From the NCBI GenBank assembly GCA_965230905.1, contig OZ246396.1, forward strand, positions 360,001 through 392,000: 32,000 nucleotides of DNA, read 5' to 3'. Below are positions 8,417-29,435 of this stretch, piece after piece. Positions within the stretch are counted from its first letter, which is position 1. The number at the start of each line of letters is the position of its first letter. The position numbers were made by a program, and so were the translations under genes. The notes under the pieces were generated by a model, which did no database searches, was not told the DNA's origin, and was given only the letters and a program-made list of their open reading frames with translations. The stretch is from Candidatus Saccharimonadota bacterium (lineage in GTDB: Bacteria > Patescibacteriota > Gracilibacteria > UBA1369 > 2-02-FULL-48-14).

Positions 8417-8527
8417 TGGTGTTGTTGTATTTCCGTTCAGTAAAGCAAATGTCTTTAACACTTACGGCGGGTCGAATTACAGAAAGTATATCAAGTACTC
8501 TAATTTTGGCGTAAGCCAATCAATACT

Positions 8528-13180: not shown

Positions 13181-13209
13181 TTGAGAACCAACAGTTGTTG
13201 GTGTACTAT
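13181..13209 (+). promoter_or_regulatory. Promoter candidate for mod with a palindromic operator in the spacer
   Basis: TTGAGA (13181-13186), 17-nt spacer, TACTAT (13204-13209). The spacer contains the perfect inverted repeat ACCAACA-GT-TGTTGGT (13187-13202). Confidence 0.45.
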
Positions 13210-13237
13210 CGTTGGCAATCGCCTAGATAAAATAAGG

Positions 13238-15244
13238 ATGCCCATCAAAACCTCTCCATCAGTACAGAAAAAATCTCAGAATCGTCTCGACTACCTGCTT
13301 TCTCAAATCTCTGAAAATGCTTTGCGCTTGGGGTTGGAACGAGAAATTTCTAAACTTCGAATGAACCGCAAGTTTGGTTTAGTGTTTGAAGAGCATGTCC
13401 CGGAACATGTGAGGCTTTACCACCACATGGTCACTGTTGGCACAAAGGTGGTTTTTCGTAATGGTAAGGGCGACGATGTGTTTAATGTGATCAATATTGA
13501 GAAAAAATCCGTGCAGTTACTTCACGAAATCGATGGCCGTTGGGAAGAGGCGCAAGTTGAGGACTTAGTAGTGATTAAGAAATTTGAGGAACCGATCTAT
13601 CCTTCTCTTATTCCTGTTGATCAGATGGTGAGAGGAGGAAATAAGCCCTATCATGCGATTATAAATGCAGACAATTTTCATGCATTACAACTTCTTCTTT
13701 ATTCTTATGAGAAGAAAGTAGACGTCATTTACATTGACCCTCCATACAATACGGGAGCTCGGGATTGGAAATACAACAATAATTATGTCGATAACAATGA
13801 TCAGTATCGCCATAGCAAATGGCTTTCGATGATGAAGAAACGATTGTTATTGGCAAAAGGTCTGCTCAAATCTGATGGCGTGCTGATAGTCGCGATCGAC
13901 GATAACGAACTTAGTACGCTTTCCTTGCTAATGAAGGATCTCTTTCCTGATCGTGAGATTGAACGAGTGATAATTAAGCATCATCCTCAGGGCAACAATG
14001 GGGTCAACATTTGGTCTACCCATGAATATGCTCTCTTTGCCCTACCAAGAGGAAGAAAGTCATTATTTGGATTTAAACATGACATGAAAGAGGAGTTTTG
14101 GTCTTTGAAGAGATCGGGGACAGGTGCAGGAAATTGGCGGCATGGAAGGCCAAAGATGTTTTTTGCTCTGCACATTGATGAGAAAAAACGAAAAGTTGTA
14201 GGTGTGGGTGAAGAGTTGAGCATCAATGAAAAGTACAAGACGGGCTATACGAAAGAGGGTCTAAAAATGATTTATCCTGTAGATGAAAAAGGTGGAGAAC
14301 GTGTCTGGAGATACGGACGGGAGACAATGATTGAGAAAATAAAAAAAGGAGAGGTTGTTGTTAGAGGCAAAGAAGGTAACTCGCTCTCTGTAGTCGCACC
14401 ACCAAGAAGTCATGCTCCTATTTTCAGTGTGTGGGATCAACCTCAATACAACGCCGGAACTGCCGGGGCAAATCTTCTATCGAACATAATGGGGGTATCT
14501 AATTCTTTCCCTTTCCCAAAATCACTCTATACAGTTCAAGATTGTATTGGTGCTGTATGCCGCGACAAACCAGATGCCCTAATCCTTGATTTCTTTGCAG
14601 GGTCGGGAACTACGCTCCATGCTACATGTCTTTTAAATACAGAAGACGACGGGAATCGTCGTTGCATTCTTGTGACTAACAACGAGGTTTCTGAGAAAAG
14701 AGCAAAGGATCTAGAGGAGAGTAGTATTTTCCCGGGTAATCCTAAATTTGAACAATACGGGATTTGTGAATCTGTGACATGGCCACGATGCAAGTACGCT
14801 ATTCAAGGAAAGCGCGACGATGGAACAGCCTTGGACGGTGAATACTTTGGTGGACGGTCTATCAAAGAAGGCTTTGAAGAAAATGTCCAATACTTTCGAT
14901 TAGATTATTTGGATCCAAATGCAGTCGCTTATCGGGAAAAACTTGAGGATGTCCTTCCTATACTTTGGCTTATGGCTGGAGCAAAAGGAGAAATAGGAAG
15001 GGCTAAAAATAAGGACTGGTTTATTTCAAAAGATTCCGCTTTTGCTGTGCTTATGAAAGAGTCTTTATTTTGCGAATTTAAAGCTGAAATTACAAATCAC
15101 AAAGATTTGACTCACGTGTTCATAGTCACGGATTCAGAAGAAGCATATCGAGATATGTGCATGCAGCTGCCTAGCAAATTTAAAACAAAAATGCTCTACA
15201 AGAGCTATTTAGAAAACTTCCGTATTAATATCGCTCAAACATGA
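13238..15244 (+). CDS. Type III-like DNA methyltransferase (Mod; beta-class N6A/N4C)
   Basis: The ORF opens at TTG 13181. ATG 13238 is preceded by AAGGA. Motif IV VIYIDPPYNTG comes before motif I ILDFFAGSGTT (beta-class order). Its stop overlaps the res start (ATGA at 15241-15244). Confidence 0.85.
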   Translation: MPIKTSPSVQKKSQNRLDYLLSQISENALRLGLEREISKLRMNRKFGLVFEEHVPEHVRLYHHMVTVGTKVVFRNGKGDDVFNVINIEKKSVQLLHEIDGRWEEAQVEDLVVIKKFEEPIYPSLIPVDQMVRGGNKPYHAIINADNFHALQLLLYSYEKKVDVIYIDPPYNTGARDWKYNNNYVDNNDQYRHSKWLSMMKKRLLLAKGLLKSDGVLIVAIDDNELSTLSLLMKDLFPDREIERVIIKHHPQGNNGVNIWSTHEYALFALPRGRKSLFGFKHDMKEEFWSLKRSGTGAGNWRHGRPKMFFALHIDEKKRKVVGVGEELSINEKYKTGYTKEGLKMIYPVDEKGGERVWRYGRETMIEKIKKGEVVVRGKEGNSLSVVAPPRSHAPIFSVWDQPQYNAGTAGANLLSNIMGVSNSFPFPKSLYTVQDCIGAVCRDKPDALILDFFAGSGTTLHATCLLNTEDDGNRRCILVTNNEVSEKRAKDLEESSIFPGNPKFEQYGICESVTWPRCKYAIQGKRDDGTALDGEYFGGRSIKEGFEENVQYFRLDYLDPNAVAYREKLEDVLPILWLMAGAKGEIGRAKNKDWFISKDSAFAVLMKESLFCEFKAEITNHKDLTHVFIVTDSEEAYRDMCMQLPSKFKTKMLYKSYLENFRINIAQT

Positions 15245-17730
15245 AAATAGAATTAAAACCGTTTCAGGAAATTGCAGCTCAAAAGCTGTTGTCACATGTG
15301 AAGAAAGCTAGAAAAGGTGTGCTCGATAAAGATAATCAGGCAATTATCCTTAGTTCTCCCACAGGCTCTGGTAAGACAGTGATACTAACTCAGCTCATCG
15401 AGTGGATTTTGCAGGGCGACGAAGAAACAGAGGGAGACAAAGATGCTGTCTTCATTTGGCTTTCGGATATGCCAGAACTCAATCTTCAAAGTAGAGACAA
15501 AATTCTTCAACAATCTTCCGACCTTTCTGGAAGCATCTTGGAGGTTATCGAATCTCCCTTTAATCAAGACCGGCTGCTTCCTGGGAAAGTTTATTTCCTC
15601 AATACTCAGAAACTAGCAAAGGATGCCCTCCTTACTAAGGTCGGAGACGGCAGGGAGTACACCATATGGCAAACCATTGAAAATACAATTAAGGCATCCC
15701 CTGAGCATCTTTATGTGATTATCGATGAAGCTCACCGTGGTATGGCGGATGGAAAAGAAAATGCCAAGGCTTCAAGTATTGTGCAGCGATTTATTGTTGG
15801 TTACCCAGAAGGTGGCATGCAACCGATACCTCTTATCATTGGTATGAGTGCTACACCTGATCGATTTCAAAAACTGATTGAGAAGACAGACCGTACCCAA
15901 CGTCCATGCATCATCGAACCTGAGGACGTTAAAGCTTCTGGTCTACTTAAAGACCGCATTATTCTTTGGCATCCTACAGAGAAAGAATCGTCTGACTTCA
16001 CGCTGCTTGCTGAAGCGACAAGACGTTGGAATACGTGTATTGAGGAATGGAAGAAATACTCCAAATCACAAAAGAGGGATGACCCAGTAGAGCCAATACT
16101 CGTAGTGCAAGTAGAGGATGGAACTGAGAAAAAGCTTTCGAGTACAGATATTGAAACGATTATTAGAACGGTTGAAAATGTAACGGGTAAACTTGATGAC
16201 AATGCCTGGGCACATGCTTTTCAAGATGAAAAACCACTTGAAATTGCCGGCAGAGTCATTCGGAAAATTGATGCCTCTAAAATTGAGGCAGACCCATTAG
16301 TGAAAGTTGTTCTTTTTAAAATGAGTCTTTCAACGGGATGGGATTGTCCACGTGCCGAAGTATTAATGTCTTTTCGCAAGGCTAAGGATGCCACTTTTAT
16401 CGCCCAGCTGGTAGGACGTATGGTTCGCACTCCTCTTGCACGTAGAGTTGAGCATAACGAACTGCTCAATAGTGTTTCTCTTTATCTTCCAAACTATGAT
16501 GAAGGGAATTTAAAAACAGTTGTGCAAAAGCTTAATTCGCAAGATCCTGAGCAGGGAATTGCTATTGAGGTAGTCGATGGTTCTAAACTCGTGCAGCTCG
16601 TACGAGATTCTGAAAAGGAACAGTCGTTTAAAAAACTTGAGACTCTGCCCACTTACCGTATTGAGCGCATTGCAAAAAGTCCAAGTGTGAGAAGACTGCT
16701 TAAGTTTGCTCGTGCATTAACAAACGATGAGATCGACAAGAAGTCATGGGATTCTTCTAAGGAGTTTGTTCTCGATTTGCTCAATAAGGAGCTGACGAAG
16801 TTAAAAAAGAAAAAATCCTTTATGGATATCATTGAGAGTAAAGGTAAAATTGAAGTTCGTGAATCCTGGCTAGAGTATGGGGAGCAGTCCCTTTCAACTT
16901 CAAATAACTACATTTCGATTGAATCTTCACCCGAGAATATAGATGACCTCTTTGAGCAGTGTGGGCGTAAACTTGGCGAAGGACTTCACATGGAGTTTTG
17001 GCGTTCAAGACAAAATAAACAAGATCCAATTGTTACAAAGCTAGAAATAATTGCCCTTTTGCAAGAAGCTGGAATCGAGGATCTCATTGAACAGCAGTGT
17101 AGTGAAGAGCTAGAGCATTTTTGGAAGACCCATGCACAAGATATTCGTGCACTACCAAGTGGCAGGGAAGAGGAATATCGCATTATCATGAGAAGGTCTA
17201 AAGAGCCTTTTGCAGAGACTCTTCAAATGCCCATAGAAATGGAGGGTGTGAAGGAAGATGCAAGCTGGGAGAAGCACATTTATATTTCCGAGAAAGGTAA
17301 GTTCACTGCGGATTTGAATAACTGGGAGTCTAGAGTGGTGCACGAAATGATCGAGGAAGATTCATCGGTTATAGGCTGGTTACGTATTCTACCTAGAAAG
17401 GACTGGGCACTTTGCATCCCTTATCGGATGGAGAATGTTGATAAGCCTCTTTATCCGGACATCATCGCGTTCCGTAAAGAAAAAGGGCAAATAGTGGCTG
17501 ATATCTTTGATCCACACGCCAGTAGTCTTACGGACGCTGTCGACAAGGCAAAAGGACTCGCGGAATATGCAAAGAAGCACGGTGAGCATTTTGGAAGAAT
17601 TCTACTTATGATTATTAATGAGAAGGATCGTCTTTGTTGTCTCGATTTAAACAAGGAAAGTGTGCGGAACGAAGTGAATAAAGTAACTAGCCAAGCACAC
17701 TTGGAGAAACTTTTTGCAGATGCTCTTTGA
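15241..17730 (+). CDS. Type III-like restriction/helicase subunit (Res; SF2 DEAH ATPase)
   Basis: Motif I SSPTGSGKT. Motif II VIIDEAHRG. Motif III GMSATP. LSTGWDCPR. Motif VI QLVGRMVRTP. The C-terminal region has YPDII...IVADIFDPH. A clear PD-(D/E)xK lysine is not evident to me. Confidence 0.8.
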   Translation: MKIELKPFQEIAAQKLLSHVKKARKGVLDKDNQAIILSSPTGSGKTVILTQLIEWILQGDEETEGDKDAVFIWLSDMPELNLQSRDKILQQSSDLSGSILEVIESPFNQDRLLPGKVYFLNTQKLAKDALLTKVGDGREYTIWQTIENTIKASPEHLYVIIDEAHRGMADGKENAKASSIVQRFIVGYPEGGMQPIPLIIGMSATPDRFQKLIEKTDRTQRPCIIEPEDVKASGLLKDRIILWHPTEKESSDFTLLAEATRRWNTCIEEWKKYSKSQKRDDPVEPILVVQVEDGTEKKLSSTDIETIIRTVENVTGKLDDNAWAHAFQDEKPLEIAGRVIRKIDASKIEADPLVKVVLFKMSLSTGWDCPRAEVLMSFRKAKDATFIAQLVGRMVRTPLARRVEHNELLNSVSLYLPNYDEGNLKTVVQKLNSQDPEQGIAIEVVDGSKLVQLVRDSEKEQSFKKLETLPTYRIERIAKSPSVRRLLKFARALTNDEIDKKSWDSSKEFVLDLLNKELTKLKKKKSFMDIIESKGKIEVRESWLEYGEQSLSTSNNYISIESSPENIDDLFEQCGRKLGEGLHMEFWRSRQNKQDPIVTKLEIIALLQEAGIEDLIEQQCSEELEHFWKTHAQDIRALPSGREEEYRIIMRRSKEPFAETLQMPIEMEGVKEDASWEKHIYISEKGKFTADLNNWESRVVHEMIEEDSSVIGWLRILPRKDWALCIPYRMENVDKPLYPDIIAFRKEKGQIVADIFDPHASSLTDAVDKAKGLAEYAKKHGEHFGRILLMIINEKDRLCCLDLNKESVRNEVNKVTSQAHLEKLFADAL

Positions 17731-17732
17731 AA

Positions 17733-18668
17733 TTATATAATGGACATTCGACTCAGTGTTTCCCATAAAAACTTCTTATTTTCCTTTGCGTTACAATGTT
17801 TAGCGATGAGTCCCCAGTAGCTGGAGAGGTTCTGAGAGTTTAAGCGAGTGATTGCTCGATTTATTGCCCTATCGTTGAGGGTCCTTCCACTTGGATACAT
17901 ACGCACACCGAGAAAATGAAGACCCTGTTTTGCTTTGAGTAGTTGATCGTTTGTAGGATGGAGAGTCAGTTTCAGTTTTTCCTTCAAAAAATGTTCTACC
18001 TGCTCTCTTTTTTGTTTTAATAAAAGTGGGTCACTATCGAAAACCAGGAAGTCATCGCCATAACGTAAATAAGCACTAGATTTAAGATGAGTAGTCACAA
18101 AACGATCTAATTCGTTCAAATAAATGTTGGCAAATATTTGGCTCGTCAGATTGCCAATAGGAATTCCAGCCGGATAGCTAAAGATGACTTCTTGAAGGAG
18201 TAAAAGTGTGGCCGGATCCGTCACTCTCCGCTTTAAAAGAGTAAGCAAAACATCCTGATCTACATGGTCAAAGAACTTCCGGATGTCGGCACGCCAAACG
18301 TAGTGATTTGGAAAGGACTTTAGAAAATCTTGTGTGCGTTCGATCGCACCTAAAAGACCCTTTGTTTTCCTGCAAGACCAAGCATCAAAAATGAACGTAT
18401 GATCAAAAATTGGTACAAGGTAATCATACAAAATCCGGTGAACAATGCGATCCCTGATAGCCGCCACTGAGATCTCTCTGCGCTTATTTTCCGCTACGAT
18501 AAAGGTTCGGTAGGAACCATGCTTGTATGTTCCCTTAGCCAAGTCTTCAAAAAGGGCCTGCAAGTTTCCTTCTAAGCTATACTCAAACTCCTCTAACTGT
18601 GGACCCGCATTTTTACCTTTTCGGTAGTTCCACCAACTTTTCCAAATATTCTCTAATTTTATATCCAT
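17733..18668 (-). CDS. Diversity-generating retroelement reverse transcriptase
   Basis: The ORF opens at TTG 18692. ATG 18668 gives MDIKLENIWKSWWNYRKGK, a typical DGR RT N-terminus. The DGR-specific motif IGNLTSQ is at 18138-18158. Catalytic RYGDD is at 18051-18065. Confidence 0.9.
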   Translation of the reverse strand: MDIKLENIWKSWWNYRKGKNAGPQLEEFEYSLEGNLQALFEDLAKGTYKHGSYRTFIVAENKRREISVAAIRDRIVHRILYDYLVPIFDHTFIFDAWSCRKTKGLLGAIERTQDFLKSFPNHYVWRADIRKFFDHVDQDVLLTLLKRRVTDPATLLLLQEVIFSYPAGIPIGNLTSQIFANIYLNELDRFVTTHLKSSAYLRYGDDFLVFDSDPLLLKQKREQVEHFLKEKLKLTLHPTNDQLLKAKQGLHFLGVRMYPSGRTLNDRAINRAITRLNSQNLSSYWGLIAKHCNAKENKKFLWETLSRMSII

Positions 18669-19011
18669 GGAAGCACTTCCAATTATAAACAAAAGTTACA
18701 GCCTTTATAAGGATCTTGTAAGTGCACAGGACCTTTTAAGCAAGCGTCATCGTTATTCACTAGGAGTAAGTTCTGAGACTAGCATCCTTTCTCTCTTAGA
18801 AGAACTCACGATGGCAAAAAATGCTCCAAAGCCTTTAAAAGGCCCTTATCTCATCAAGGCAAGTGCCAGTTTAGAAGTGCTCATACTAAAACTTCGACTT
18901 CTACTAGAACTGAAACTAATCAACGAAACAAAGGTTTTCCAACTCCAAGCCAAAGCCTCCGAGATCGGAAGGATGCTTGGAGGTTGGCTTAAAAGTGTCC
19001 AAAGTACTTAA
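18667..19011 (+). CDS. avd: DGR accessory variability determinant (Avd; four-helix-bundle / 23S rRNA IVS-like protein)
   Basis: 114 aa. LPIINKSYSLYKDLV...KRHRYSLG...LEVLILKLRLLLELKLI...ASEIGRMLGGWLKS matches the Avd pattern (compare BPP-1 Avd ...AEVGRILGSWIARV). It is on the opposite strand to RT, TR and the targets. Confidence 0.85.
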   Translation: MEALPIINKSYSLYKDLVSAQDLLSKRHRYSLGVSSETSILSLLEELTMAKNAPKPLKGPYLIKASASLEVLILKLRLLLELKLINETKVFQLQAKASEIGRMLGGWLKSVQST

Positions 19012-19116
19012 CCATCATCGAGGCACGCAACCGGGCATTATCGTTTGGATTATCTAGATTATCGTTGTTGAACTTTGCCTTATCATCATTCCAGTTTCCA
19101 TAGGCGACGTTACCGT
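19008..19116 (-). repeat. DGR template repeat (TR)
   Basis: About 109 nt, homologous to VR1 and VR2. Sense (minus) strand: GGTAACGTCGCCTATGGAAACTGGAATGATGATAAGGCAAAGTTCAACAACGATAATCTAGATAATCCAAACGATAATGCCCGGTTGCGTGCCTCGATGATGG. It is rich in AAC/AAT/GAT codons. Nearly all TR/VR differences fall on TR adenines. Confidence 0.9.
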
Positions 19117-19152
19117 GAGTTGACCGCACCTATCCGATAGATCTTCACAGCC

Positions 19153-19185
19153 GCAACCATGAAGTCCGCATTGGTTTGCTTTTTT
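19153..19185 (+). terminator. Candidate terminator for the avd transcript (after it has crossed the TR in antisense)
   Basis: Stem GCAACCA / TGGT(T)TGC (7 bp, one bulge) with a 12-nt loop, followed by T6 (19180-19185). Confidence 0.35.
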
Positions 19186-19360
19186 CAAGGCCTTCTATGA
19201 CCTTAGATGCGGCTCAAACGTGATGGGTATTAATACTTTGTGATTGAGATTGTAGGCAGTGCTTCACATGGCGCTGACTATTTATAGACCTCAATTCTAT
19301 GGTAGCTGCCGTCGTAGCGACAGATGCTATTCACCACGACCGTAGTTTAAACGACTCCGC

Positions 19361-19387
19361 AAAAAAGAAAAAGCCCGCTTCGCGGGG
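19361..19387 (-). terminator. Rho-independent terminator after DGR target 1
   Basis: Minus strand reads CCCGC-GAA-GCGGG followed by CTTTTTCTTTTTT. It lies about 30 nt after the stop at 19416. Confidence 0.7.
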
Positions 19388-19415
19388 AAGGATAAGAAAA
19401 AATAAATTTCAAATG

Positions 19416-20375
19416 TTAAGCTTCAACTTCACCCATCACCGAGGCACGCAACCGGGCACCAGCGCTTGGATTACCTAGACCATCGCGGTCGAACCCCGCC
19501 CTAGCACCAGCCCCGTACCCAAAGGCGACGCTGCCGTCTCGAACGTGGGCAGCTTTAGGTTCACCAGCAAGTAAAGTGAACTGAGAACTACTAGCGTTAA
19601 TCATATCTGTTGGCTTGCCTACCCTGAGGTTCCTCATCATGAGCATCATATAAGCATGGGCATTCATACTTTGAATACCTTTACTGGCATAGTTCGCTTC
19701 AAAGTCTGCTATACGCTTATCATTCCTCATACTTTGTTGTTTATTCCATGGTTCTGACGCATCAGTACCATTAAAGTTTTGAGCACCTTCCACAATTGCG
19801 AACCGGTATTTTGTAATTTCTTGGTCTCTACGCACGCCGAAGTGCTGCGCAGCCTGCATGACTGTATCTTTAAAGAAGTCACCCACATAGGCATCCTGTT
19901 GGCCAGTTATGGCCCCTTTATTCTTGCACTCGGGTTTATTAATTGCAGTTTGGAGTCGCTCTATATTTGTGTCTGGAACAATTAACAATACTGACTCTCG
20001 TAGCTTTCTAAGTTCAGCTATTTGCTCAGGCTTAAGCTGCTTTAAGATGGATGCTTTAATTTTTTCTTTGCTTGGTGCTCTTTCACCCTTTCGTGGGTCT
20101 AAAACGAGTGAGAGAGTGGTAGAAGCCTCACCATACTCACGGTCCACAATATCTTTAATCCATTCTTCATCGTTTTTCTCTAGATTTCTTGTTTTACCAG
20201 ACAAAACTGCCTCAATATCACTACGCAAAGTGTCTATTTCCTGAACTAAACTGCCTTTATCTGGCGAGGCTTTTATCCTTGGGATTGCGGCGTCCACAGC
20301 GGCTTTTACCTTCTCATTTGAGAGGTATAATTCGCTTCTGCGTAGTTCGCTTATGAAAGTATCTGTATCGTTCAT
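19416..20375 (-). CDS. DGR variable protein 1 (319 aa; C-terminal variable module only)
   Basis: The C-terminal ~215 aa are homologous to the C-terminus of the next gene (LLIVP...INKPECK...DAY...YRF.I..G...WN...). The last ~35 aa are encoded by VR1: GSVAFGYGAGARAGFDRDGLGNPSAGARLRASVMGEVEA. Confidence 0.85.
   Translation of the reverse strand: MNDTDTFISELRRSELYLSNEKVKAAVDAAIPRIKASPDKGSLVQEIDTLRSDIEAVLSGKTRNLEKNDEEWIKDIVDREYGEASTTLSLVLDPRKGERAPSKEKIKASILKQLKPEQIAELRKLRESVLLIVPDTNIERLQTAINKPECKNKGAITGQQDAYVGDFFKDTVMQAAQHFGVRRDQEITKYRFAIVEGAQNFNGTDASEPWNKQQSMRNDKRIADFEANYASKGIQSMNAHAYMMLMMRNLRVGKPTDMINASSSQFTLLAGEPKAAHVRDGSVAFGYGAGARAGFDRDGLGNPSAGARLRASVMGEVEA
19429..19537 (-). repeat. DGR variable repeat VR1
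   Basis: Offset +421 from the TR. My manual alignment gives 22 substitutions at TR-adenine positions and 2 at non-adenine positions. The 3' IMH-like end GCCCGGTTGCGTGCCTCGGTGATGGGTGAA differs from TR ...CTCGATGATGGTTAAG. Confidence 0.9.
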
Positions 20376-20413
20376 TTTAAATTAAAGAAAAAAAGAAAAG
20401 CAAATTTTAAATG

Positions 20414-22981
20414 CTAAGTTTTAATTTCACCCATCACCGAGGCACGCAACCGGGCACTATCGAGTGGAAAATCCAGATTAGCGTTGTGGAACCCGGCCCT
20501 AGCACCAGCCCAGTCGCCACAGGCGACGCTACCGTTTCTTTGAACCTGTTCCAGCAATGTTATTGTATTTTTGTCTATAGGGGCACCGCTCTTCATGGCT
20601 CGCATTTGTAATAGAGCATAAGATTGGTCATCTAAGCCCATCATAGATTTTGGTCTAAAGTTGGCATTAAAGGCGTTGATACGCTCTTGATTAGTCGGTG
20701 TTTTGGTTCCAATTTTTGCCTGATTCCACTCACCGTGATCAGTAATGTCTTCAACTCCATCTGTAATTACGAATCTATACCCTAAGATTTTGCCATCGTC
20801 TAAAGCTTTTCCCTTGGGGGCAGTTAAACCTGCTTTTGCCTGTGTGCACTGCAAGTTAAAAGTCTCCTTTGTGAACTCTGAAAAGTAAGCATCGTTTGCG
20901 CTGCTAGGAGTTTTACATTCCGGCCTATTGATCGCTTTTTCATAACGGTCAAGTTTGGCAGGATACGGAACAATGAGCAGGGTTGGCTTTTTGAATTTTA
21001 CAACTTCTTCCCATTGTTCTTTCTTTACAACCTTTAATGCCTGCTTTATCTGTTCAGGTGTTGGCGCAGGCGCATCCCCGGTACCAATTTCAAATAATCT
21101 TGCTATATCTAGGGCTTCTTGAATCTGCTGTTCCATTTGTTTTTCTATTTCTTTGGGTTTTTCACGTCCCCTTCCACTAGGGTTCAGTAGTCCCAATAAT
21201 CTTTCCTGAGCTTCTCCTAGAGCCTCGTCTTCATCATCCATATCAATATCAGCCTTGGGTTTAACCCCAAACAACCTACCTACTTCCGAAGGCAGAATTA
21301 CTTCTCGGCTTTCTTCGCCCCAAAGAGCTTTATCCAATGGAGGGGCTATCACTCCGCTTCCACCAGCATCTAGGACTCCACAAACATTCAGAATCACACC
21401 TGCTAATTGTTTTTCCTGCTTATCCATATCAAACTTAGGATCTCTCAAAAAACGATCTAGTTTTTCTGCTAGGAACTGCCTAAAGGTTCTGCCTTTTGCT
21501 TTTTCCAGATCCCATCCTTCAAACATTCGAGTCAGTGTTCCAGTATCTAAGAAGCTTTTGTCCAAATGAACTTCATCCATACGTCCACCAAAGACCTGTG
21601 CAATCACTTCTTTATTGGCAGAAGCATTCAAGCCATCAATCTCACGATCGTGGCACATCTGCATGAGTTCTGCCGCCTTTGTCACCCGACGGATCAACTC
21701 TACGTCTTGAGGGCTCAGCGGTAGAAAGCCTGTGTCATCCATCATTTCTGCTAAAACTACTTTAAATAGCTCATCAGAAGGCATGTAGCCCACTTTAACT
21801 CCGGAGAGCATACGCAAAATAGCAGGATCCATGTCTTCACGAGCTTTAGTCCTATCATCTTTAAGGTTACCTGTAAAAATTTCTCCAAAGCCCTCTTTTA
21901 CTTCAAACACATCTCCGTTAAAACCGGGGAGATGAAGTTTTTGACCTACCCTCGCATTTAATTGGGCTTTAGCTGAAAGTTGTGCGCGAGTTGATCCCGT
22001 AGTGTACTCATCATGAATTACAATCTTTCCGTTGGTAATCGCAAGCGAAACTGGGCCAGGCTTGGTTCGACTTTTCATTCCTCCTTCCGCTTGATCAATT
22101 TCACGGTAACCAAATAAGTCTCTAGGAGTAGTGCCTTCATGCCACGAGACAATCTCATACCCCTCATCGTTAACTAAGTCTGCAACTAAGGTAGCTAGTT
22201 GAGTCTTACCAGTTCCAGTTGAGCCTATAAGAAATATCTTTTCTCCATGAGCTACTCCAGATAGGACACGACTTAAAAGTGTCCTTCGTGACTCCGTAGT
22301 AGCAAACCCTTTTTCTTGAAGTTCTTTCTTGTATCCAAGTAACTCTTGAACGTACAACCAACTCTTTGTGTCGGAGTCCGCAGTAGCTGTTGCTTGAGCT
22401 ATTTCAGTTTCTGCCCTCTCTCGTTTAGACTCAAGCGCTCCAATAGTCTTTTTTGTGGTTTCCTGAACCTTCCCACGTTCTCTTTTGTCTTTGAGGTACA
22501 TTGTTGTGACTTTCCGTGGGATAACTGCTCTTAAACGACTCAGTCTTGCTACTTTCTTTAGAGTTGGTCTAGCTGCTTTGAATTTTTGTGACTCTGTTTT
22601 CAGAACTCTAAAAAATTCTCTTTTAACATCTGGCACAGCAAGTAGTAGACGAATTTCTCCGCGGATTGTTTCTTTAGCATCGTCGGCATCCCGACTTTTT
22701 CCATCAGATTTTTCTAATTTTGCTAGCAATTGATCCAAATCTTCTTCCTCAGCCCAATCAAGATGTTCCTTTGCTTCTGGATTCCCCTCAGAAAAGTATT
22801 CTTCGATCAGACCTAAAAGACTTAGTGCCTTGCCCTGCACATCTTCGGACACTTTGCTGACTTCCCCTTCATCTCTATCTGTTATTTCCATTTCTTCCTT
22901 AAATCGTCCTTCGTCCGGTTGCATTAGACGACGCAGATAACGATTCATCCCATTTCCATCTTTTTGTGGCTCTTCTGACAT
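20414..22981 (-). CDS. DGR variable protein 2: MoxR-like AAA+ ATPase fused to the C-terminal variable module (855 aa)
   Basis: Walker A KIFLIGSTGTGKTQ (nt 22202-22225). Walker B KIVIHDEY. Acidic/coiled N-terminal ~240 aa. The C-terminal ~215 aa are paralogous to variable protein 1 and end in the VR2-encoded GSVACGDWAGARAGFHNANLDFPLDSARLRASVMGEIKT. Confidence 0.85.
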   Translation of the reverse strand: MSEEPQKDGNGMNRYLRRLMQPDEGRFKEEMEITDRDEGEVSKVSEDVQGKALSLLGLIEEYFSEGNPEAKEHLDWAEEEDLDQLLAKLEKSDGKSRDADDAKETIRGEIRLLLAVPDVKREFFRVLKTESQKFKAARPTLKKVARLSRLRAVIPRKVTTMYLKDKRERGKVQETTKKTIGALESKRERAETEIAQATATADSDTKSWLYVQELLGYKKELQEKGFATTESRRTLLSRVLSGVAHGEKIFLIGSTGTGKTQLATLVADLVNDEGYEIVSWHEGTTPRDLFGYREIDQAEGGMKSRTKPGPVSLAITNGKIVIHDEYTTGSTRAQLSAKAQLNARVGQKLHLPGFNGDVFEVKEGFGEIFTGNLKDDRTKAREDMDPAILRMLSGVKVGYMPSDELFKVVLAEMMDDTGFLPLSPQDVELIRRVTKAAELMQMCHDREIDGLNASANKEVIAQVFGGRMDEVHLDKSFLDTGTLTRMFEGWDLEKAKGRTFRQFLAEKLDRFLRDPKFDMDKQEKQLAGVILNVCGVLDAGGSGVIAPPLDKALWGEESREVILPSEVGRLFGVKPKADIDMDDEDEALGEAQERLLGLLNPSGRGREKPKEIEKQMEQQIQEALDIARLFEIGTGDAPAPTPEQIKQALKVVKKEQWEEVVKFKKPTLLIVPYPAKLDRYEKAINRPECKTPSSANDAYFSEFTKETFNLQCTQAKAGLTAPKGKALDDGKILGYRFVITDGVEDITDHGEWNQAKIGTKTPTNQERINAFNANFRPKSMMGLDDQSYALLQMRAMKSGAPIDKNTITLLEQVQRNGSVACGDWAGARAGFHNANLDFPLDSARLRASVMGEIKT
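20427..20535 (-). repeat. DGR variable repeat VR2
   Basis: Offset +1419 from the TR. My manual alignment gives 20 substitutions, all at TR-adenine positions. Its IMH-like 3' end is the same as in VR1. Confidence 0.9.
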
Positions 22982-23015
22982 TTGATTATTTAAATCTGTT
23001 AATTATAGCATTCTT

Positions 23016-25607
23016 TTATAACCTTTTCAAGGAGTTGCTGAGCATCCTATGCCTTGTCAGTACTGCTTCTTTCACATCGCTTAGTACCACTCCTGCGTCA
23101 GGAGTTCCAGGGTCATGACAAATCACACGAATATCTTGGGCACTTTCTCCAAAACCTATCCCTTGGACAACAATACCTCTGGCCCTGAGCCTTGTAATAA
23201 TATTCACGGCTTCGGGTTTATCACCCACTCCTCCATCTGAAACAATGGTAAGTACCTTAACGCATTTCCCATTTTTTATTTTTTGGTCTGTTTTGCCGTC
23301 TAGGGCCGCTTCATAGGCCTTCAGTGCTCCAACTAAATTTCCTCCTCCGCTCTGCGTTTTGTTGAGTTCGTCATATAGGAATGCTAGTGCCTTCTCATCA
23401 ATCTTTTGCTCGGGATTTTGTAAAACTGATACTAAGGTATCTCCTTTGAAGGAAAGTACGTGACTTCGCAAATTGATTGGATCTTTCATCCTTTTACGAT
23501 ATTTATCTAAATCGAGTCGCTTGTTTAGCATCATAAGGTTGTAGAGTCCTGAAAGGATCATCTTTTTTTGTTCTTCGGCAGGCGTTCCACTCATGGAACC
23601 TGTAAGATCCAAAATTGCATCATCTTCAAATTCAGTTACATAAATCTCTTCGCGAGTCTTAACTGCATGAATTTTATACCCTAGGGGATCTGGTTCTCCC
23701 GCAAGTAGGTCAATTGCAGCATCAACCGGATCATCCAGTTCGTCACCTTCGCTTTGACGCACGGGTCCTCGGTAAGCCTCGACGGAGATTTCGCGTCTTT
23801 TATAAATTATTTCAAATAAACTATCCCACTCTTCTTTCAGTGTGCTTGTGCGATTTTTGATGCTAGATACTGCTGGAACAGGCGTGTTGTTGACCCCACT
23901 AATGAAAGCTTCTACAGCTTTCCATTTCGCAAGAGACACTCCTGTTTGCTGTTCAAATAGTTTTGCCGGATTAGGATCTTCCTCCTTCCCTTTGGCCTGT
24001 TCCAGCATTTCTTCAAAAAGAGTTCGAACTTCTTCTAAGGAAAGTTCTTCTTGCTCTTCAGGTGGTGCAGCCTCCCCAAAATCTCCATCTTGCGGCTCGC
24101 CATTTTCCTCTTCATCATCATCATCTTCCTTTTCTTTTGCTGGAGTCGCATCAGTACGAATCCACTCCTCGCCATTCCACACTTCCCCCCAGGCGTGACC
24201 AATGCCTGCAATAGCCGCAAAGTCAAAACGCGGATCTTTTGAGATGTAATGCCCTGCAATTACTCTGTGATGAATGCCAAGATGGGCAAGCATTTGACCG
24301 TGAAAAATATTGCTCCAGTAACAATCAGCAATTCCATTGGTAGTCATCACTTGCAATAAATTATCTCCAGAGTTCAAGTAGGCTTCGTTCATCTGTGCTC
24401 TTGCCCCCTCGTCTTTTGGATATTTAAATCGTTTCCTTACGTAGGCTGCACAGCGTTTGGCCTTTTCAATATCTGAAAGGGTATGATCTTGTTCAAGGTT
24501 TTTTAAAAAACCTTCTGCTTCGTTATCAAAATTGCCTAAAACTTTCTCTATTTCTTCGGGTTCATCGTTTAGTTTAATAGCTTCATTTTGGGCTAAAATA
24601 AACTTAAACGTGACTGGTGTTTTTGCAGTTACTTTTGGTGAACCCTGCTTGGCGGCTAAATAAAAGCTTCCCGTATCACTTCTTACAATTTGGAGATTTT
24701 TAGGTTCTAGTGTGTGTGGAAGTGGAACAGCAGCATAGGGAAGTTCCAAAAGATTATCTTTGTCTGGATTGAAGACAGTTTCATAAGTGTATTCTTTAGC
24801 TTCTTCCAAATCATCTGGTGCAAAAGTGTGCGCTTGCCCAGGTTTCTGTACGATTTGTTTTTGATTGGAATCGTATGCACAAACATTTCCTCGGTAGTAG
24901 CCACCAAAAAAGGGACTGACTTTCGTTTCGATATCGTTTGGATCAATTGGTTCTTGTTCCCCAGCTCCGACCTGAGGCTTATATTCAAATTTCTTCGTTT
25001 CTTGCTTTTCTTCTTCCTTTAGCGCTAGGTGCGCCCGTTCTAAATGCCCGTAAAGTTTTAGATTAACCTCTGGAGTATATTCTTCGGAAATGAGCTCATC
25101 CAAGGCGTGAAGTTTTCGTCTGCTTTTTGGAACGGCACGGAAAGCTTTAGCCACTTCAGGGCTTAAACCTTCTGGTAACTTACCTCGAATCACGTATTGT
25201 TCACATGCGTACAAGAATTGATCGGCCAAGCCCAAGTCACCGGGATTGACTTGAGTAGGTGGAAGCTCTCGCTTAAGGTGTTTTAGACCTTGAAGCTTAA
25301 GAATATTTTTGTATCCTTTTTGATCTTGTAAAACCCGAAAGGCTGCTTGAGCGTCTTGTTGGATGAATCGTCTAGTTTGGGTCAATTCCGCTACTCTAAG
25401 TGTGGCAGCCCTTATGGCTTGATTTCGGTCACTGAATTTTTGTCGATTGACCTCAACTTTAAAGACTTCTCCATCTTTGCTGACATGGACTTTTGGTCCA
25501 GTATCTACAAGCACGATTTGATTACCCGCAAGAGTCATTTCTATCAGCTGAAGATCAGCCTCTGATAGGTCTTTTGTTTCGTCTAGTTGGTCGTCTTTTT
25601 CTGCCAT
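23016..25607 (-). CDS. Transglutaminase-like cysteine protease domain + von Willebrand factor A domain fusion protein (863 aa)
   Basis: TGase core at about nt 24138-24470: GIADCYWSNIFHGQMLAHLGIHHRVIAGHY...GIGHAWGEVWNGEEWIRTDATP (Cys-His-Asp). Acidic linker KEKEDDDDEEENGEPQDGD. C-terminal vWA at about nt 23058-23630 with a MIDAS-like DLTGSMSG and later TIVSDGG. Confidence 0.8.
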   Translation of the reverse strand: MAEKDDQLDETKDLSEADLQLIEMTLAGNQIVLVDTGPKVHVSKDGEVFKVEVNRQKFSDRNQAIRAATLRVAELTQTRRFIQQDAQAAFRVLQDQKGYKNILKLQGLKHLKRELPPTQVNPGDLGLADQFLYACEQYVIRGKLPEGLSPEVAKAFRAVPKSRRKLHALDELISEEYTPEVNLKLYGHLERAHLALKEEEKQETKKFEYKPQVGAGEQEPIDPNDIETKVSPFFGGYYRGNVCAYDSNQKQIVQKPGQAHTFAPDDLEEAKEYTYETVFNPDKDNLLELPYAAVPLPHTLEPKNLQIVRSDTGSFYLAAKQGSPKVTAKTPVTFKFILAQNEAIKLNDEPEEIEKVLGNFDNEAEGFLKNLEQDHTLSDIEKAKRCAAYVRKRFKYPKDEGARAQMNEAYLNSGDNLLQVMTTNGIADCYWSNIFHGQMLAHLGIHHRVIAGHYISKDPRFDFAAIAGIGHAWGEVWNGEEWIRTDATPAKEKEDDDDEEENGEPQDGDFGEAAPPEEQEELSLEEVRTLFEEMLEQAKGKEEDPNPAKLFEQQTGVSLAKWKAVEAFISGVNNTPVPAVSSIKNRTSTLKEEWDSLFEIIYKRREISVEAYRGPVRQSEGDELDDPVDAAIDLLAGEPDPLGYKIHAVKTREEIYVTEFEDDAILDLTGSMSGTPAEEQKKMILSGLYNLMMLNKRLDLDKYRKRMKDPINLRSHVLSFKGDTLVSVLQNPEQKIDEKALAFLYDELNKTQSGGGNLVGALKAYEAALDGKTDQKIKNGKCVKVLTIVSDGGVGDKPEAVNIITRLRARGIVVQGIGFGESAQDIRVICHDPGTPDAGVVLSDVKEAVLTRHRMLSNSLKRL

Positions 25608-25875: not shown

Positions 25876-27471
25876 ATGACACAGATCTCCAAAAATCTTA
25901 AGAAAGGCATCCTAGCCGTTCTTTTGACCGTTCTTCTTATCCCTACTGCTTCAGCCTCCACTTTTGGAGACGTTGCATCCAGCAACACCAACTATGTTGC
26001 GATTGAGTACCTCGTTAGCATTGGTACTCTTGAAGGTTACTCAGATGGCACCTTCAAACCCAACCAAACCATCAATCGGGCGGAGCTCATGAAAATCCTT
26101 GTTGCCGGACAAGGCATTGATCCCGATGAAAATACTTATAAAAACTGTTTCCCGGACGTCACTACAGATTGGTACGCTAAATATGTTTGCTATGCCCATG
26201 AAGAAGGGTGGGTGGACGGTTATCCTGATGGAACATTTCAACCCGCAACCACTGTTAACAAAGTGGAAGAAGTAAAAATGCTCGTGAATGCTTTGGGCCT
26301 CGATTCAATGCTTCCAAGCTCTGTCAGCACGACTTTGTTTACCGACACGGACAGTTCAGCTTGGTATGCTCCATACCTCTATGTTGCAAAAGATTTGAAT
26401 TTGCTTGAAATCAGCAGTGGGAATTTCCTCCCCTCGGGGGACATGGATAGAAGCGGCGTTGCAGAAAATATTTATCGAACCCTAGTTGTGCAGGAGACTG
26501 ATGTGAGTGCGTTTAGTGACGAAGCACAAACGAACTTTCTCACGCAAAAGGATCTTACTTCACTGATCAGCTCGGATGATTCCAATGACACGGAAACTAC
26601 AGATTTCTCTGATGAAACTGAGAGTAACGACCAAACTGTTTCAATTGATGACATTGAACTCTCCGGTTCAGGTGCAGAAGTTTCTGACCCTTTCCAACTT
26701 GAAGAAGGTTTATCCGTAGTCACTTTAACTCACTCGGGAGACAGTAACTTTATAGTCAGGGTTCTTTCTACTTCGGATGACAGCACAGAATATCTCGTGA
26801 ACGAAATTGGCGACTACGATGGTGTTACTGCCTTTGGAGTTGATGAGGCTGGAGAGTACGTTTTAGACATTGATGCGGATGGGCCTTGGACTGCTACCAT
26901 TGAGCAGCCTCGAGATACTTCCAACGCTCAGTACACCAAAAGTTTCTCGGGAGAAGGCATGATGGTCACAGATTTTATAAAAGTTGAGGAGGGACTTGCT
27001 GTCTTCAACTTTACGCATGATGGTGATTCGAATTTTATAGTACATCTCTTGGATGAGGGTGGAGATGTCGTTGGCTATCTTGCCAACCAAATTGGTGAAT
27101 ATGAAGGGTCTATCGCGGAATATGTAGATGAGGGGACGTATGTGGTTCGCATCGATGCGGATGGTGAATGGACGATGGACTTTGACCAAGTAGATTTTAG
27201 TGACAGTAGTTCTGATACCAGCTTCAGCGGTGAAGGTAGTGCTGCTACCCAAGTCTTTCACGTTGAGACAGGAGGTTTGAAGACTTTTGACCTCAGTCAC
27301 TCGGGCGATAGTAACTTCATTGTTCACCTTCTTGATTCTGATGGCCGAACGGTGGCTTACCTGGCAAATGCCATTGGAGACTACAGCGGCTCTACTGCCG
27401 AGTATTTGGATGCAGGCGACTATATTATGAACGTTCAAGCGGACGGAGAGTGGGACATTTCCATTGACTAA
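25876..27471 (+). CDS. Secreted SLH-domain surface protein with three tandem copies of an unknown ~85-aa domain
   Basis: Signal peptide ...LLIPTASA/S. Three SLH repeats (FGDVASSNTNYVAIEYLVSIGTLEGYSDGTFKP; FPDVTTDWYAKYVCYAHEEGWVDGYPDGTFQP; FTDTDSSAWYAPYLYVAKDLNLL). Ser/Asp/Thr-rich linker, then the three repeats. Confidence 0.85.
   Translation: MTQISKNLKKGILAVLLTVLLIPTASASTFGDVASSNTNYVAIEYLVSIGTLEGYSDGTFKPNQTINRAELMKILVAGQGIDPDENTYKNCFPDVTTDWYAKYVCYAHEEGWVDGYPDGTFQPATTVNKVEEVKMLVNALGLDSMLPSSVSTTLFTDTDSSAWYAPYLYVAKDLNLLEISSGNFLPSGDMDRSGVAENIYRTLVVQETDVSAFSDEAQTNFLTQKDLTSLISSDDSNDTETTDFSDETESNDQTVSIDDIELSGSGAEVSDPFQLEEGLSVVTLTHSGDSNFIVRVLSTSDDSTEYLVNEIGDYDGVTAFGVDEAGEYVLDIDADGPWTATIEQPRDTSNAQYTKSFSGEGMMVTDFIKVEEGLAVFNFTHDGDSNFIVHLLDEGGDVVGYLANQIGEYEGSIAEYVDEGTYVVRIDADGEWTMDFDQVDFSDSSSDTSFSGEGSAATQVFHVETGGLKTFDLSHSGDSNFIVHLLDSDGRTVAYLANAIGDYSGSTAEYLDAGDYIMNVQADGEWDISID
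26660..27468 (+). repeat. Three tandem coding repeats (approx 26660-26907, 26944-27192, 27223-27468)
   Basis: Protein-level repeat consensus FSGEG....F.VE.GL..F.LTHSGDSNFIVHLLD..G..V.YLAN.IG.Y.GS.AEY.D.G.Y...I.ADGEW. Confidence 0.8.
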
Positions 27472-27520: not shown

Positions 27521-29074
27521 TCAATCGTACACGACTCTTTCATTTCCATAACGGTCTGAATAAACAGATCTGTCTTTATAGTGCGTACTACTCCCGCCAT
27601 TGTAATCTAAAAACATCAGACAATATGACAGCTCTTTCCCTTGCGAAGCATGAGAGATCAACATGCTTAGGGCATCCATCAGATCGTCATGGCGTTCCAG
27701 TCCAAAATTTGTTATTTGCTGGATTAGTTTTTCGCAGCCCTGTTCGGGGAAAAGTATCTGACCTTTTTCGAAGTAGTGTGAAATCAGGCTCAACCTGGCC
27801 CGCTTATCTCCTTTCGGAATAAAACCCTCCACATCGCAGCCAGCTGCCTCCAGCTCTTGAATTGCTGCTTTTTGGAACTGTACGTCCTCCACGATCAGCT
27901 TTGCCCCGTGCTCGTCATGGATTTGCTTGGCTACCCCTAGAATGTGGTTGAAGGTTAGGTGGGCATTGATGGGATTGGGCATAATGTAGATCCTCATCTT
28001 GTCTTTATATCCATGGACTTGGGCAGTAACCATGGCTGTGTAATCCGCTTTATCGTTTTGAGAAATAGCGAGATCAATGCCAGTAAACATTCCCCTGAAC
28101 TCATTTGTCCGTTTGTCCTTTTCTGGAAGTGCATGGTAAGTGCGAATCCATTCTGGGAAAATCACCCTGTCACTGTCCGTAACAATCGTGAGCATATACT
28201 CTCGTTGCCAGGATGATTCTTTTCCAATTCTTTTTTTCTCGTGAAGGATACTTTCTTCATCAGGAAACTTCCCAGGCCACACACTCTCCTCCTTTTCGTT
28301 CAGCAAAGGGTACGCACGGAACTCTCCATCAAACTCCTTGTTCACTATGCGCTTCCTTAGACGCATGATGAAAGAGTCCTCGTGTAAGAGGTTACCGATC
28401 ACTACGAGCCGCGTCTTGGGCGTTCCGGCTGGGATGATCTCACTGGTGATGACTTCGTCCACCTTGTCTCTACTCTCCAAGGTTTTGGTGGAATTTAAAT
28501 CCTCTACATCGTCGCAGATGATGAGGTCTGGACGATGTGCTCCGTGACGAATACCACGAATACTTTGGTCTATAGAGACGGCAGTGATTCTGGCACCTAG
28601 ATCTGGAATTTCAAGAGTGTAGGCACTCCAGTCGTTCTCTATTTCCTTGAATGGGCCAAGATCCTTGCTTAAAAGCTCGTTATTCTCAAGTTCCTGCTTG
28701 ATGTTTTTTAGGTGACGTTTGGCTTGATCTTGGGTTAAACCGACAATCACCACGTGTTTACATTGTGGTTTTCCTAAGATAGACCAAATAGGAAGACTGG
28801 TATTCATGATGGTCGATTTTCCGGATCCTCGAAATGCTACTATCACGATATTTTTTGCATTGGGATTTTCCGTGAGTGTAAACATTTCCTTTTGGAATTC
28901 AGCAGTGTCGTATTCGATGTAATGCCTGAAATAAATGTGGAAAAACATGAAGTGGCTTTCAAAAGTCAGCTGTTTGCGGAGTTTTTTATTCTTTACGATT
29001 TCCGGTAAATTATAGATTGGTTCCATCGTTTTGTGGGTTAGTGGGTAATAGACCGGCATGGACAAGTGCTTCAT
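27521..29074 (-). CDS. terL: Phage terminase large subunit
   Basis: Walker A VIVAFRGSGKST. Walker B/coupling LIICDDVED. C-terminal RNaseH-like nuclease region (GIDLA...DYTAM...DDLMDAL). The start may be ATG 29074, 29059 or 29026. It overlaps the terS end. Confidence 0.85.
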   Translation of the reverse strand: MKHLSMPVYYPLTHKTMEPIYNLPEIVKNKKLRKQLTFESHFMFFHIYFRHYIEYDTAEFQKEMFTLTENPNAKNIVIVAFRGSGKSTIMNTSLPIWSILGKPQCKHVVIVGLTQDQAKRHLKNIKQELENNELLSKDLGPFKEIENDWSAYTLEIPDLGARITAVSIDQSIRGIRHGAHRPDLIICDDVEDLNSTKTLESRDKVDEVITSEIIPAGTPKTRLVVIGNLLHEDSFIMRLRKRIVNKEFDGEFRAYPLLNEKEESVWPGKFPDEESILHEKKRIGKESSWQREYMLTIVTDSDRVIFPEWIRTYHALPEKDKRTNEFRGMFTGIDLAISQNDKADYTAMVTAQVHGYKDKMRIYIMPNPINAHLTFNHILGVAKQIHDEHGAKLIVEDVQFQKAAIQELEAAGCDVEGFIPKGDKRARLSLISHYFEKGQILFPEQGCEKLIQQITNFGLERHDDLMDALSMLISHASQGKELSYCLMFLDYNGGSSTHYKDRSVYSDRYGNERVVYD

Positions 29075-29435
29075 GGATTTGTACTTCCTCCTCGGAAGTG
29101 AGTTTGTCTAAGTTTTCTAGCCGCCCAGTGACTTCGACCTTGGTTTTGTAGTCTGGGTGGTTATTTTTTAGCCAGAATATGATTCCGGTCATGTTTCCGT
29201 CCCGGACGGCTTTCATGAGCTGGGACTCAGCTATGTCGTTCACGATTTTCTTTCCTGAATAAAGTGCTCCGTCGGATTCTTCAGTGAACTTTTCATCCTC
29301 CTTGCGCCAGCGGTAGTAGGTTGCTCTTCCAATGCCAGTTTTTTCACAGGCGACTTGAACAATTGGAGTTTTACGAAGATTCTCCAGAAGTATTTCTTTG
29401 TTCTTTTCGGTTTTTTGCGCTGTTAAGTCATCCAT
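29010..29435 (-). CDS. terS: Terminase small subunit-like HTH protein
   Basis: 141 aa. HTH GIGRATYYRWRKEDEKF, followed by LMKAVRDGNMTGIIFWLKNNHPD, typical of small terminase / phage DNA-binding proteins. It lies directly upstream of terL. Confidence 0.65.
   Translation of the reverse strand: MDDLTAQKTEKNKEILLENLRKTPIVQVACEKTGIGRATYYRWRKEDEKFTEESDGALYSGKKIVNDIAESQLMKAVRDGNMTGIIFWLKNNHPDYKTKVEVTGRLENLDKLTSEEEVQIHEALVHAGLLPTNPQNDGTNL

Follow-up and report, generated by a model that had tools for sequence, protein, structure and literature searches.

Does the locus at positions 17733-22981 of a 32,000-nt stretch of Candidatus Saccharimonadota DNA (assembly GCA_965230905.1, contig OZ246396.1, 360,001-392,000; hereafter the window) harbour a working diversity-generating retroelement (DGR), and if so, which proteins does it diversify and how could the copying of its template be primed? 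An initial annotation, made from the sequence alone, had described a complete DGR consisting of a reverse transcriptase (RT) gene, an avd gene, one template repeat (TR) and two variable repeats (VR1 and VR2). All these components are present, while the range of 17733-20535 given for the element turned out to be too short, as it omits most of the second target gene. The evidence presented below indicates that the locus is very probably a functional DGR of a type widespread in ultra-small bacteria (candidate phyla radiation, CPR; Patescibacteria). Its anatomy, the adenine specificity of its repeats and the constancy of TR combined with the turnover of VRs between strains were observed directly.

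Repeats and genes of the retroelement

The non-coding TR recurs at the 3' ends of two genes (Table 1), and machine alignment reproduced the earlier positions of all three copies, each being one base off at one end. The variable part of the repeats comprises 80 nt, 33 of which are adenines and 47 other bases; the 32 TR adenines counted by eye from GGT AAC to the last AAT were found again, the thirty-third being the A of the preceding ACGG. As in the count by eye, VR1 differs from TR at 22 adenines and at two other positions (both T), and VR2 at 20 positions, all of them adenines. The bias is highly significant in both cases (Fisher test of adenine versus non-adenine positions, p = 1.3e-9 for VR1 and 1.6e-10 for VR2). 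Mismatches spread evenly over the four bases, which had been named in advance as an outcome incompatible with a DGR, were not seen. An independent repeat search recovered the same three-copy family, and no fourth TR/VR copy was found within the window.

Since the two target proteins are truly paralogous over about 220 residues, the repeats might be viewed as ordinary paralogous sequences that diverged by point mutation or gene conversion with no retroelement involved. This explanation is refuted by the base-specific mismatch spectrum (42 of the 44 TR/VR differences fall on TR adenines, which make up only 33 of the 80 positions). In addition, the third copy is non-coding and lies beside the RT and avd genes, and the same pattern recurs in 62 related loci. 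The probability left to ordinary paralogy is negligible.

All three copies share the invariant 18-nt segment GCCCGGTTGCGTGCCTCG. The bases that follow it are common to both VRs and different in TR (VR-type GTGATGGGTGAA versus TR-type ATGATGGTTAAG), so that the repeat ends, judged by sequence, are of the IMH/IMH* (initiation of mutagenic homing) kind, as had been proposed. Both target ORFs read through the VRs and have their stop codons 12 nt past the VR ends, and the TR sits 339 nt upstream of the RT start. The TR is indeed rich in AAY codons, and its 17 recodable codons correspond to about 10^16 protein variants. At 19072-19080 it reads AAG GCA AAG, and both AAG codons can be mutated to the stop codon TAG, in which they differ from the AAY codons that DGR templates usually have; at these two codons both VRs of the window carry AGG and GGG, and the VRs of the related loci L081 and L083 other sense codons.

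The RT carries the previously noted IGNLTSQ and YGDD motifs and matches RVT_1 with an E value of 1.5e-15. Enzymes of the DGR clade are recognized by a motif 4 of the form [I/L]GxxxSQ combined with YxDD. The best PDB match is Bordetella bRT (8ub7, E 3.7e-39), group II intron RTs scoring 1e-17, and by motifs and best match the sequence belongs to the DGR clade. The mechanically called ORF (17733-18692) opens with a TTG at 18692, whereas the ATG at 18668 is the probable start; RT orthologues are called at 311-320 aa. The identification of Avd was borne out by PF22296 (bAvd; 50.4 bits, cut-off 40) and NF033474 (E 4.3e-17). The avd stop codon adjoins the 3' end of TR. At the other end of the gene, the divergent ATGs of avd and RT overlap by 2 nt within the palindrome CCATGG (18665-18670), hence the promoter of each must lie within the other gene; the TR/RT transcript would be antisense to the entire avd.

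The best 80 RT relatives, taken from 185,579 species genomes, come mostly from CPR metagenome-assembled genomes (MAGs), the closest being those of Peregrinibacteria and other Patescibacteria (54-61% identity). Avd was matched in ∼70 related CPR loci, and most of these have avd and RT head-to-head, avd being placed immediately 5' of RT on the other strand. In 62 of the 83 related loci TR is found about 320 nt before RT and at least 75% of the mismatches are at adenine, and in most of these 62 a VR precedes TR by about 420 nt, which gives the layout VR - TR - avd(-) - RT. With its inverted avd and an RT that groups with CPR RTs, the window element can be assigned by sequence to the CPR-type DGRs (architecture B3). 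The small target has an exact counterpart among the proteins of a Patescibacteria MAG held at NCBI.

The same cassette is present in L081/L082 at 93-95% nucleotide identity. The TR of these sister strains is 100% identical to that of the window over the 110 nt compared, while VR1 shows 26 differences, of which 24 fall on TR adenines, and VR2 shows 25, without exception on TR adenines. Along the cassette, the density of mismatches peaks at 26 per 100 nt exactly at both VRs, and in the RNA leader upstream of TR it is 2 per 100 nt. Since TR stays constant and the VRs differ almost only at positions of TR adenines, recent homing is indicated. Divergence from L081 over 17747-22846 is mosaic, about 1.4 kb free of differences lying beside stretches where 10-19 are counted per 100 nt, namely in the small target gene (5' half) and in the RT gene (3' part), which suggests recombination between strains. 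In another relative, L206, the two VRs (6138-6241 and 12216-12319) are identical over 104 nt and both differ from TR at 17 adenines, even though they belong to different genes (for a 325-aa protein and an AAA_5 protein) separated by 6 kb; the identity could be an artefact of assembly, or be due to gene conversion or to a single cDNA having homed into both.

Judging from these sequence comparisons, the DGR is probably still active. Several observations weigh against this reading or against the functionality of the element as a whole. One of the two non-adenine changes of VR1 converts TGG to GGG at 19512-19514 (codon 288, Trp288 to Gly); this tryptophan is nearly invariant in the family and is retained by the orthologues P0002 and P0003, so that the function of the small target may have suffered in the strain at hand. 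No significant GC-rich inverted repeat, hairpin or cruciform was found directly 3' of either VR, the sole hairpin there being a terminator-like one with a 5-bp stem about 40 nt past VR1. A GC-rich hairpin 3' of VR, as in Bordetella-type target recognition, is not universal among DGRs. The 62 bits scored by Avd against NF033474 are below the equivalog cut-off of 80. Finally, in L083, whose small target is 73% identical, the TR (8434-8540) has 7-8 non-adenine differences common to both VRs, and several such sites carry, in the VRs, the base found in the TR of the window. Hence, the TR of L083 must have drifted since the last homing, a dormant element is suggested, and homing, as far as this sequence can tell, can be rare or lost in relatives.

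The two changes in VR1 with the loss of the conserved tryptophan, the drift in L083 and the two AAG codons open to TAG stops would all suit a fossil element, dead in this strain, whose repeats merely record past homing. Such an element would hardly be expected to retain, as this one does, intact RT, Avd and both target ORFs and a VR2 with no non-adenine mismatch. Furthermore, the sister strains share an identical TR, yet their VRs differ at about 25 adenine sites between flanks of 93-95% identity and next to a nearly unchanged leader. We regard the fossil explanation as improbable and retain that of a functional DGR.

Table 1. Coordinates of the cassette, its RNA elements and neighbouring genes within the window
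Feature	Position	Strand	Description
DGR RT gene	17733-18668	minus	311 aa from ATG 18668; RVT_1
avd	18667-19011	plus	opposite to RT, TR and targets
TR	19007-19116	minus	non-coding; from machine alignment
VR1	19428-19537	minus	3' end of small target gene
VR2	20426-20535	minus	3' end of AAA_5 target gene
Small target gene	19416-20375	minus	319 aa; N-terminal helical region and C-terminal variable domain
Large target gene	20414-22981	minus	855 aa; MoxR-like AAA_5 and C-terminal variable domain
Partner gene	23016-25607	minus	863 aa; transglutaminase-like core and C-terminal vWA
Terminator-like hairpin after small target gene	19374-19386	minus	CCCGC GAA GCGGG, then CTTTTTCTTT
Further conserved non-coding sequence	19250-19340	minus	GGTGAATAGC, variable hairpin, GCTACC, A-rich stretch
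Structured RNA domain	19112-19225	minus	immediately 5' of TR; from covariation and covariance models
Strand a	19219-19243	minus	long-range duplex; ends in conserved box ACGUUUGAG
P1	19205-19212, pairs with 19124-19131	minus	5' strand directly after box ACGUUUGAG (19213-19221)
P2 hairpin	19187-19204	minus	
A-rich single strand	between P2 and P3	minus	GAAAAAAGCAAACCAAUGC
P3 hairpin	19143-19164	minus	loop UUGCGR
From P3 to TR		minus	ACGGAUA-like stretch, P1 3' strand (19131-19124), UCAAC, TR
Strand a'	18998-19020	minus	last 14 nt of TR (19007-19020, IMH*-like end) and next 9 nt (18998-19006)
Serine integrase	11553-12881		phrog_95, E 3e-64
Type III restriction-modification (R-M) pair	13181-17730		
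TerL	27521-29074		
TerS	29010-29435		
Two DNA methyltransferases	29439-31455		

The conserved RNA upstream of the template repeat

The 300 nt between VR1 and TR, aligned over 21 loci, contain conserved boxes set between helices of differing but complementary sequence. In a MAFFT alignment of 18 loci, the bases of the domain immediately 5' of TR (Table 1) pair in 87% of the cells, compared with 58% after shuffling and 39-46% with slid partners; compensatory changes were found in 21 of the 22 pairs, and the covariation score is 0.81 versus 0.26. The structure of this RNA is thus supported by covariation. Covariance models detected it in 24 of 85 sources, in one copy per locus, always just 5' of TR and nowhere else in 1.28 Mb, and they also match L206. 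More distant CPR DGRs were left unmatched, a second model reaching none further, and in Rfam no family matched at E≤1 save for one chance-level hit, the RT motifs, including RT-10, being unmatched as well. A metagenome scan with a degenerate pattern of the RNA was discarded: the covariance model did not bear out 79 of the 80 loci fetched, which probably match by chance, and the scan is therefore uninformative on the abundance of the RNA. The conserved sequence further upstream, at 19250-19340, may serve as the promoter of the TR transcript or form its 5' part.

The element farthest from TR, strand a, is complementary to strand a', which covers the 3' end of TR and contains the complement of the avd stop codon. 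RNAduplex predicts 21 bp for this duplex in the window, and the mean energy of cognate strands is -19.5 kcal/mol compared with -13.8 kcal/mol for non-cognate ones. By column count, 72.9% of the positions are paired versus 64.7% after shuffling (none of 500 shuffles reach the observed value) and 34-50% with slid partners, and compensatory changes occur in 9 pairs. Downstream of TR, RNAalifold found no consensus pair within 130 nt in the 21 loci; the sequence conservation of this region is explained by avd being encoded on the other strand. A long hairpin at about 18937-18985 of the window was considered as a stem-loop of the Avd-binding type and rejected, being unconserved.

In the ribonucleoprotein of the Bordetella DGR, a primer strand located downstream of TR pairs with the 3' end of TR, and an adjacent duplex joins the sequence just 5' of TR to the spacer; after these come a small stem-loop, adenosines that stay unpaired, the thumb ring, which is single-stranded, and a further stem-loop, to which RT binds (bioRxiv 10.1101/2023.10.23.563531). 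The elements described here (a:a', P1, P2, A-run, single strand and P3) come in the same succession as in the Bordetella DGR RNA (Handa et al. 2018/2024). In contrast to the latter and to Rfam RT-10 (Weinberg et al. 2017), all the CPR elements lie 5' of TR, in permuted order, with no Avd-binding stem-loop found directly 3' of TR and no similarity at the level of sequence or model. By this analogy, we infer that the leader RNA would act as a scaffold for RT/Avd binding and for priming in cis. All elements that follow TR in Bordetella would here sit upstream of it, and the RNA chain would enter before the primer strand and exit after TR. The a:a' duplex would bring the invariant box ACGUUUGAG to the 3' end of TR, and cDNA would be primed from an upstream nucleotide. 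Such a circular permutation fits the inversion of avd. That the scaffold is circularly permuted in this CPR DGR clade and, separately, that the hypervariable domain may have a fold other than the C-type lectin and Ig ones reported from DGR targets, is suggested tentatively.

The position of the leader 5' of the TR/RT transcription unit would also suit a regulatory element, such as an attenuator, a processing site or a protein-binding 5' UTR controlling TR/RT expression. This alternative seems rather unlikely: strand a pairs, with covariation, with the 3' end of TR, P1 sets a duplex directly 5' of TR, and the order of elements mirrors the cPRT-stop, thumb-ring and bRT-binding elements of Bordetella (bioRxiv 10.1101/2023.10.23.563531), while the region downstream of TR, where Bordetella carries these elements, shows no conserved structure. 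Taken as a scaffold, the leader tied to the 3' end of TR offers a testable model for cDNA priming in DGRs with inverted avd (B3), and no study on the priming of B3 DGRs was found in the accessible DGR literature.

According to the proposed mechanism, a minus-strand non-coding transcript would consist of the ∼125-nt structured leader, the 110-nt TR and antisense avd (the boundaries are putative), and would probably continue into the RT gene. As in Bordetella, the RT-Avd complex would reverse-transcribe TR with misincorporation opposite template adenines, and the cDNA, guided by the invariant GC-rich end, would replace the homologous VR at the 3' end of either of the two paralogous genes. Homing would recode 17 codons on a C-terminal beta-hairpin and loop, allowing about 10^16 variants per target.

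Diversified proteins, their partner and the surrounding island

The last ∼220 residues of the two targets are paralogous (37% identity, E 1e-33). In the large target this variable domain occupies about residues 640-855 and follows an AAA_5 domain of the MoxR/dynein type (residues 249-390, PF07728, E 1.6e-13) with the Walker A motif GSTGTGKT. Orthologues of the targets are 73-88% identical, and their differences cluster in the VR. In the AF2 model of the small target (pLDDT 93.8), VR covers a predicted beta-hairpin (282-299) and the following loop; the 17 recodable codons would correspond to residues 282-306, that is, to the hairpin and loop ahead of the invariant last strand ARLRASVMGE.

An exhaustive search of 1.84 billion cluster representatives with a profile of the variable domain yielded only 152 relatives, most of them ∼300-aa proteins and a few ∼800-aa AAA_5 fusions. 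Over this domain, neither the targets nor their relatives match any Pfam family, even at E 5, and scans of NCBIfam, PADLOC and PHROGs gave no match. The profile found nothing among PDB sequences either, and a Foldseek search of PDB and BFVD (viral predicted structures) with the above model returned nothing below E 0.5. By eye, the VR retains a CLec-like pattern (W, about 15 residues, P, and [AG]-x-R-x-x-V on the last strand). The same family serves as DGR target in L002, L003, L007, L012, L029 and L030. As judged by hhalign, it is distantly akin to two more clusters of CPR DGR targets and unrelated to the FGE-sulfatase-type or DUF4256-type ones. In three CPR loci (L001 8486-9268, L004 and L032; E down to 1e-43), the domain that the DGR targets is Pfam DUF4256 itself, and the 995-aa protein P0072 combines AAA_5, a copy of the variable-domain family of the window and then DUF4256 in one chain. 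The variable domain, confidently modelled yet unmatched, is a candidate for a new scaffold tolerating massive variation and as such is of interest to protein engineering.

Next to the AAA_5 gene lies the gene of a partner protein with a transglutaminase-like core (Transglut_core, E 7.6e-8; Cys-His-Asp motifs present). Its VWA match (E 0.0038) is below the Pfam cut-off; the MIDAS-like (metal-ion-dependent adhesion site) motif DLTGSMSG is present, and PF00092 is recorded for five homologues. Of the seven other loci covered, six (L081, L083, L084, L205, L206, L207) have the two genes side by side, and in L208 they are about 3 kb apart with two genes between them. The pair is accompanied by a DGR in L081/L082, L083, L205 and L206, and occurs without an adjacent RT in L084 (51% and 45% identity), L207 and L208. 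Since the pair exists with and without a DGR, the latter seems to be a later addition to a MoxR-vWA-type pair that was already there, a hypermutation device joined to a ready-made machine of two proteins. Ahead of the AAA_5 gene, the intergenic gap contains a strong sigma-70-like promoter match (23002-23030, minus strand; TTGAAA, 17 nt, TG-TATAAT; 11/12), so that the AAA_5 target may be transcribed separately from the transglutaminase-vWA gene.

The cassette is located on a prophage-like island that spans 11293-32000 of the window. The GC content drops from about 0.50 to about 0.42 past about 11 kb, and homology with L081 begins exactly at the start of the island, at tRNA-Ser(tga) 11293. The integrase and the type III R-M genes precede the cassette, and TerL, TerS and the methyltransferases lie beyond it. 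Portal or capsid genes were not found within the window, nor were att-type direct repeats of at least 12 nt joining tRNA-Ser to the island's other end. In the interval from the cassette to the terminase genes, the opposite strand (25876-27471, plus) encodes a secreted-looking protein with SLH domains, in which, by eye, there seem to be three internal repeats ending in GDSNFIV. In L205 (1-16712), the cassette transglutaminase-vWA / AAA_5(VR) / avd(-) / RT, with 13 of 15 TR/VR mismatches at A, is found within a phage structural module, with an SU10 major capsid gene to one side of it and, to the other, genes for terminase, an SPP1-type portal and minor capsid. Given this location, the cassette rides on phage-like elements; in L083, L206 and L207 its context is a plain chromosomal one.

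As to the role of the system, the hypervariable domain may act as an intracellular ligand sensor, with the ATPase-vWA pair signalling to the transglutaminase-like peptidase, in a conflict or defence module carried by the prophage-like island; the balance for this proposal falls just short of even. Telling against it, the sensor and defence role is read from domain content and neighbourhood only, and no PADLOC model matches the cassette proteins. Using the same DGR mechanism, the targets might instead act outside the cytoplasm, in the attachment of the episymbiotic CPR cell to its host, or serve the prophage in host recognition or take-over. Host attachment has been suggested for CPR/DPANN DGRs (PMC10907252), TerL and TerS lie 2-4 kb from the cassette, and in L205 it is found between the terminase/portal/minor-capsid and major capsid genes. 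This is doubtful, because no hydrophobic segment, membrane segment or signal-like N-terminus is predicted in either target or in the partner, and an AAA+ fusion paired with vWA is typically a cytoplasmic machine. Moreover, deposited phage genomes and IMG/VR contain no match to the transglutaminase-vWA protein, and the cassette also resides in the chromosomal contexts mentioned above. The intracellular sensor is therefore preferred, with the reserve stated.

Comparison with known systems

The DGR of Bordetella phage BPP-1 (mtd-avd-TR-brt) resembles the window element in the clade of its RT, the presence of Avd, the adenine-specific TR/VR relationship, the AAY-rich TR, and the location of VR at the 3' end of the target with an invariant GC-rich end followed by IMH/IMH*-type differences. 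Unlike in BPP-1, avd of the window has the inverse orientation and a place downstream of TR, the targets number two and include no tail fibre, no hairpin directly follows the VR, and the structured RNA is upstream instead of downstream of TR.

With the DGR-linked ternary vWA-MoxR-associated protein (VMAP) conflict systems described from multicellular bacteria (Kaur et al. 2020; Dore et al. 2024), the locus has in common a MoxR-type AAA+ ATPase and an adjacent vWA protein beside a DGR, a hypervariable ligand-binding domain that presumably acts as sensor, and a domain of the peptidase type. Where such systems occur in cyanobacteria and gammaproteobacteria, it is the vWA protein that carries, as a fusion, the domain diversified by the DGR (PMC7159879), whereas here the variable domain resides on the ATPase and on a free paralogue and is not recognizable as FGS/CLec. 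Further differences are that the vWA protein bears the peptidase-like domain, in the form of a transglutaminase core, that the host is a CPR bacterium, that the RT belongs to a different DGR clade, and that no VMAP component was found, Pfam scans of the cassette proteins revealing no VMAP-type family.

The closest parallel is provided by the CPR/DPANN DGRs (the 'CPR set', architecture B3, VR class UVR4, target category g1 of Wu et al. 2018; clade 2 of Roux et al. 2021), which share with the window element the patescibacterial host, CPR-type RT relatives, the inverted avd, a target of the Midasin/AAA type whose VR domain belongs to no recognised family, and cytoplasmic-looking targets, and differ in nothing essential. 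Architecture B3 is the typical layout of CPR DGRs, which occurs in 90% of that set, and CPR targets with Midasin/AAA domains and a VR fold of no known identity have been described (Wu et al. 2018, PMC5758913). Dore et al. 2024, citing Paul et al. 2017, name the fusion of an AAA ATPase with a variable domain as the commonest architecture of CPR targets (PMC10907252). In the accessible CPR DGR literature, the primary CPR paper aside, we found no account of a transglutaminase-vWA partner, of a stand-alone second target paralogous to the first, of a prophage-like island or of an RNA domain upstream of TR. Since a CPR host, a B3-type layout and an AAA-fused target have all been reported before, the window element is best regarded as a new member of a described class. 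As a DGR it adds one more well-resolved example to a class abundant in CPR bacteria, its parts of most interest being the conserved RNA of the leader, the variable domain for which no match was found, and the partnership of ATPase, vWA and transglutaminase.

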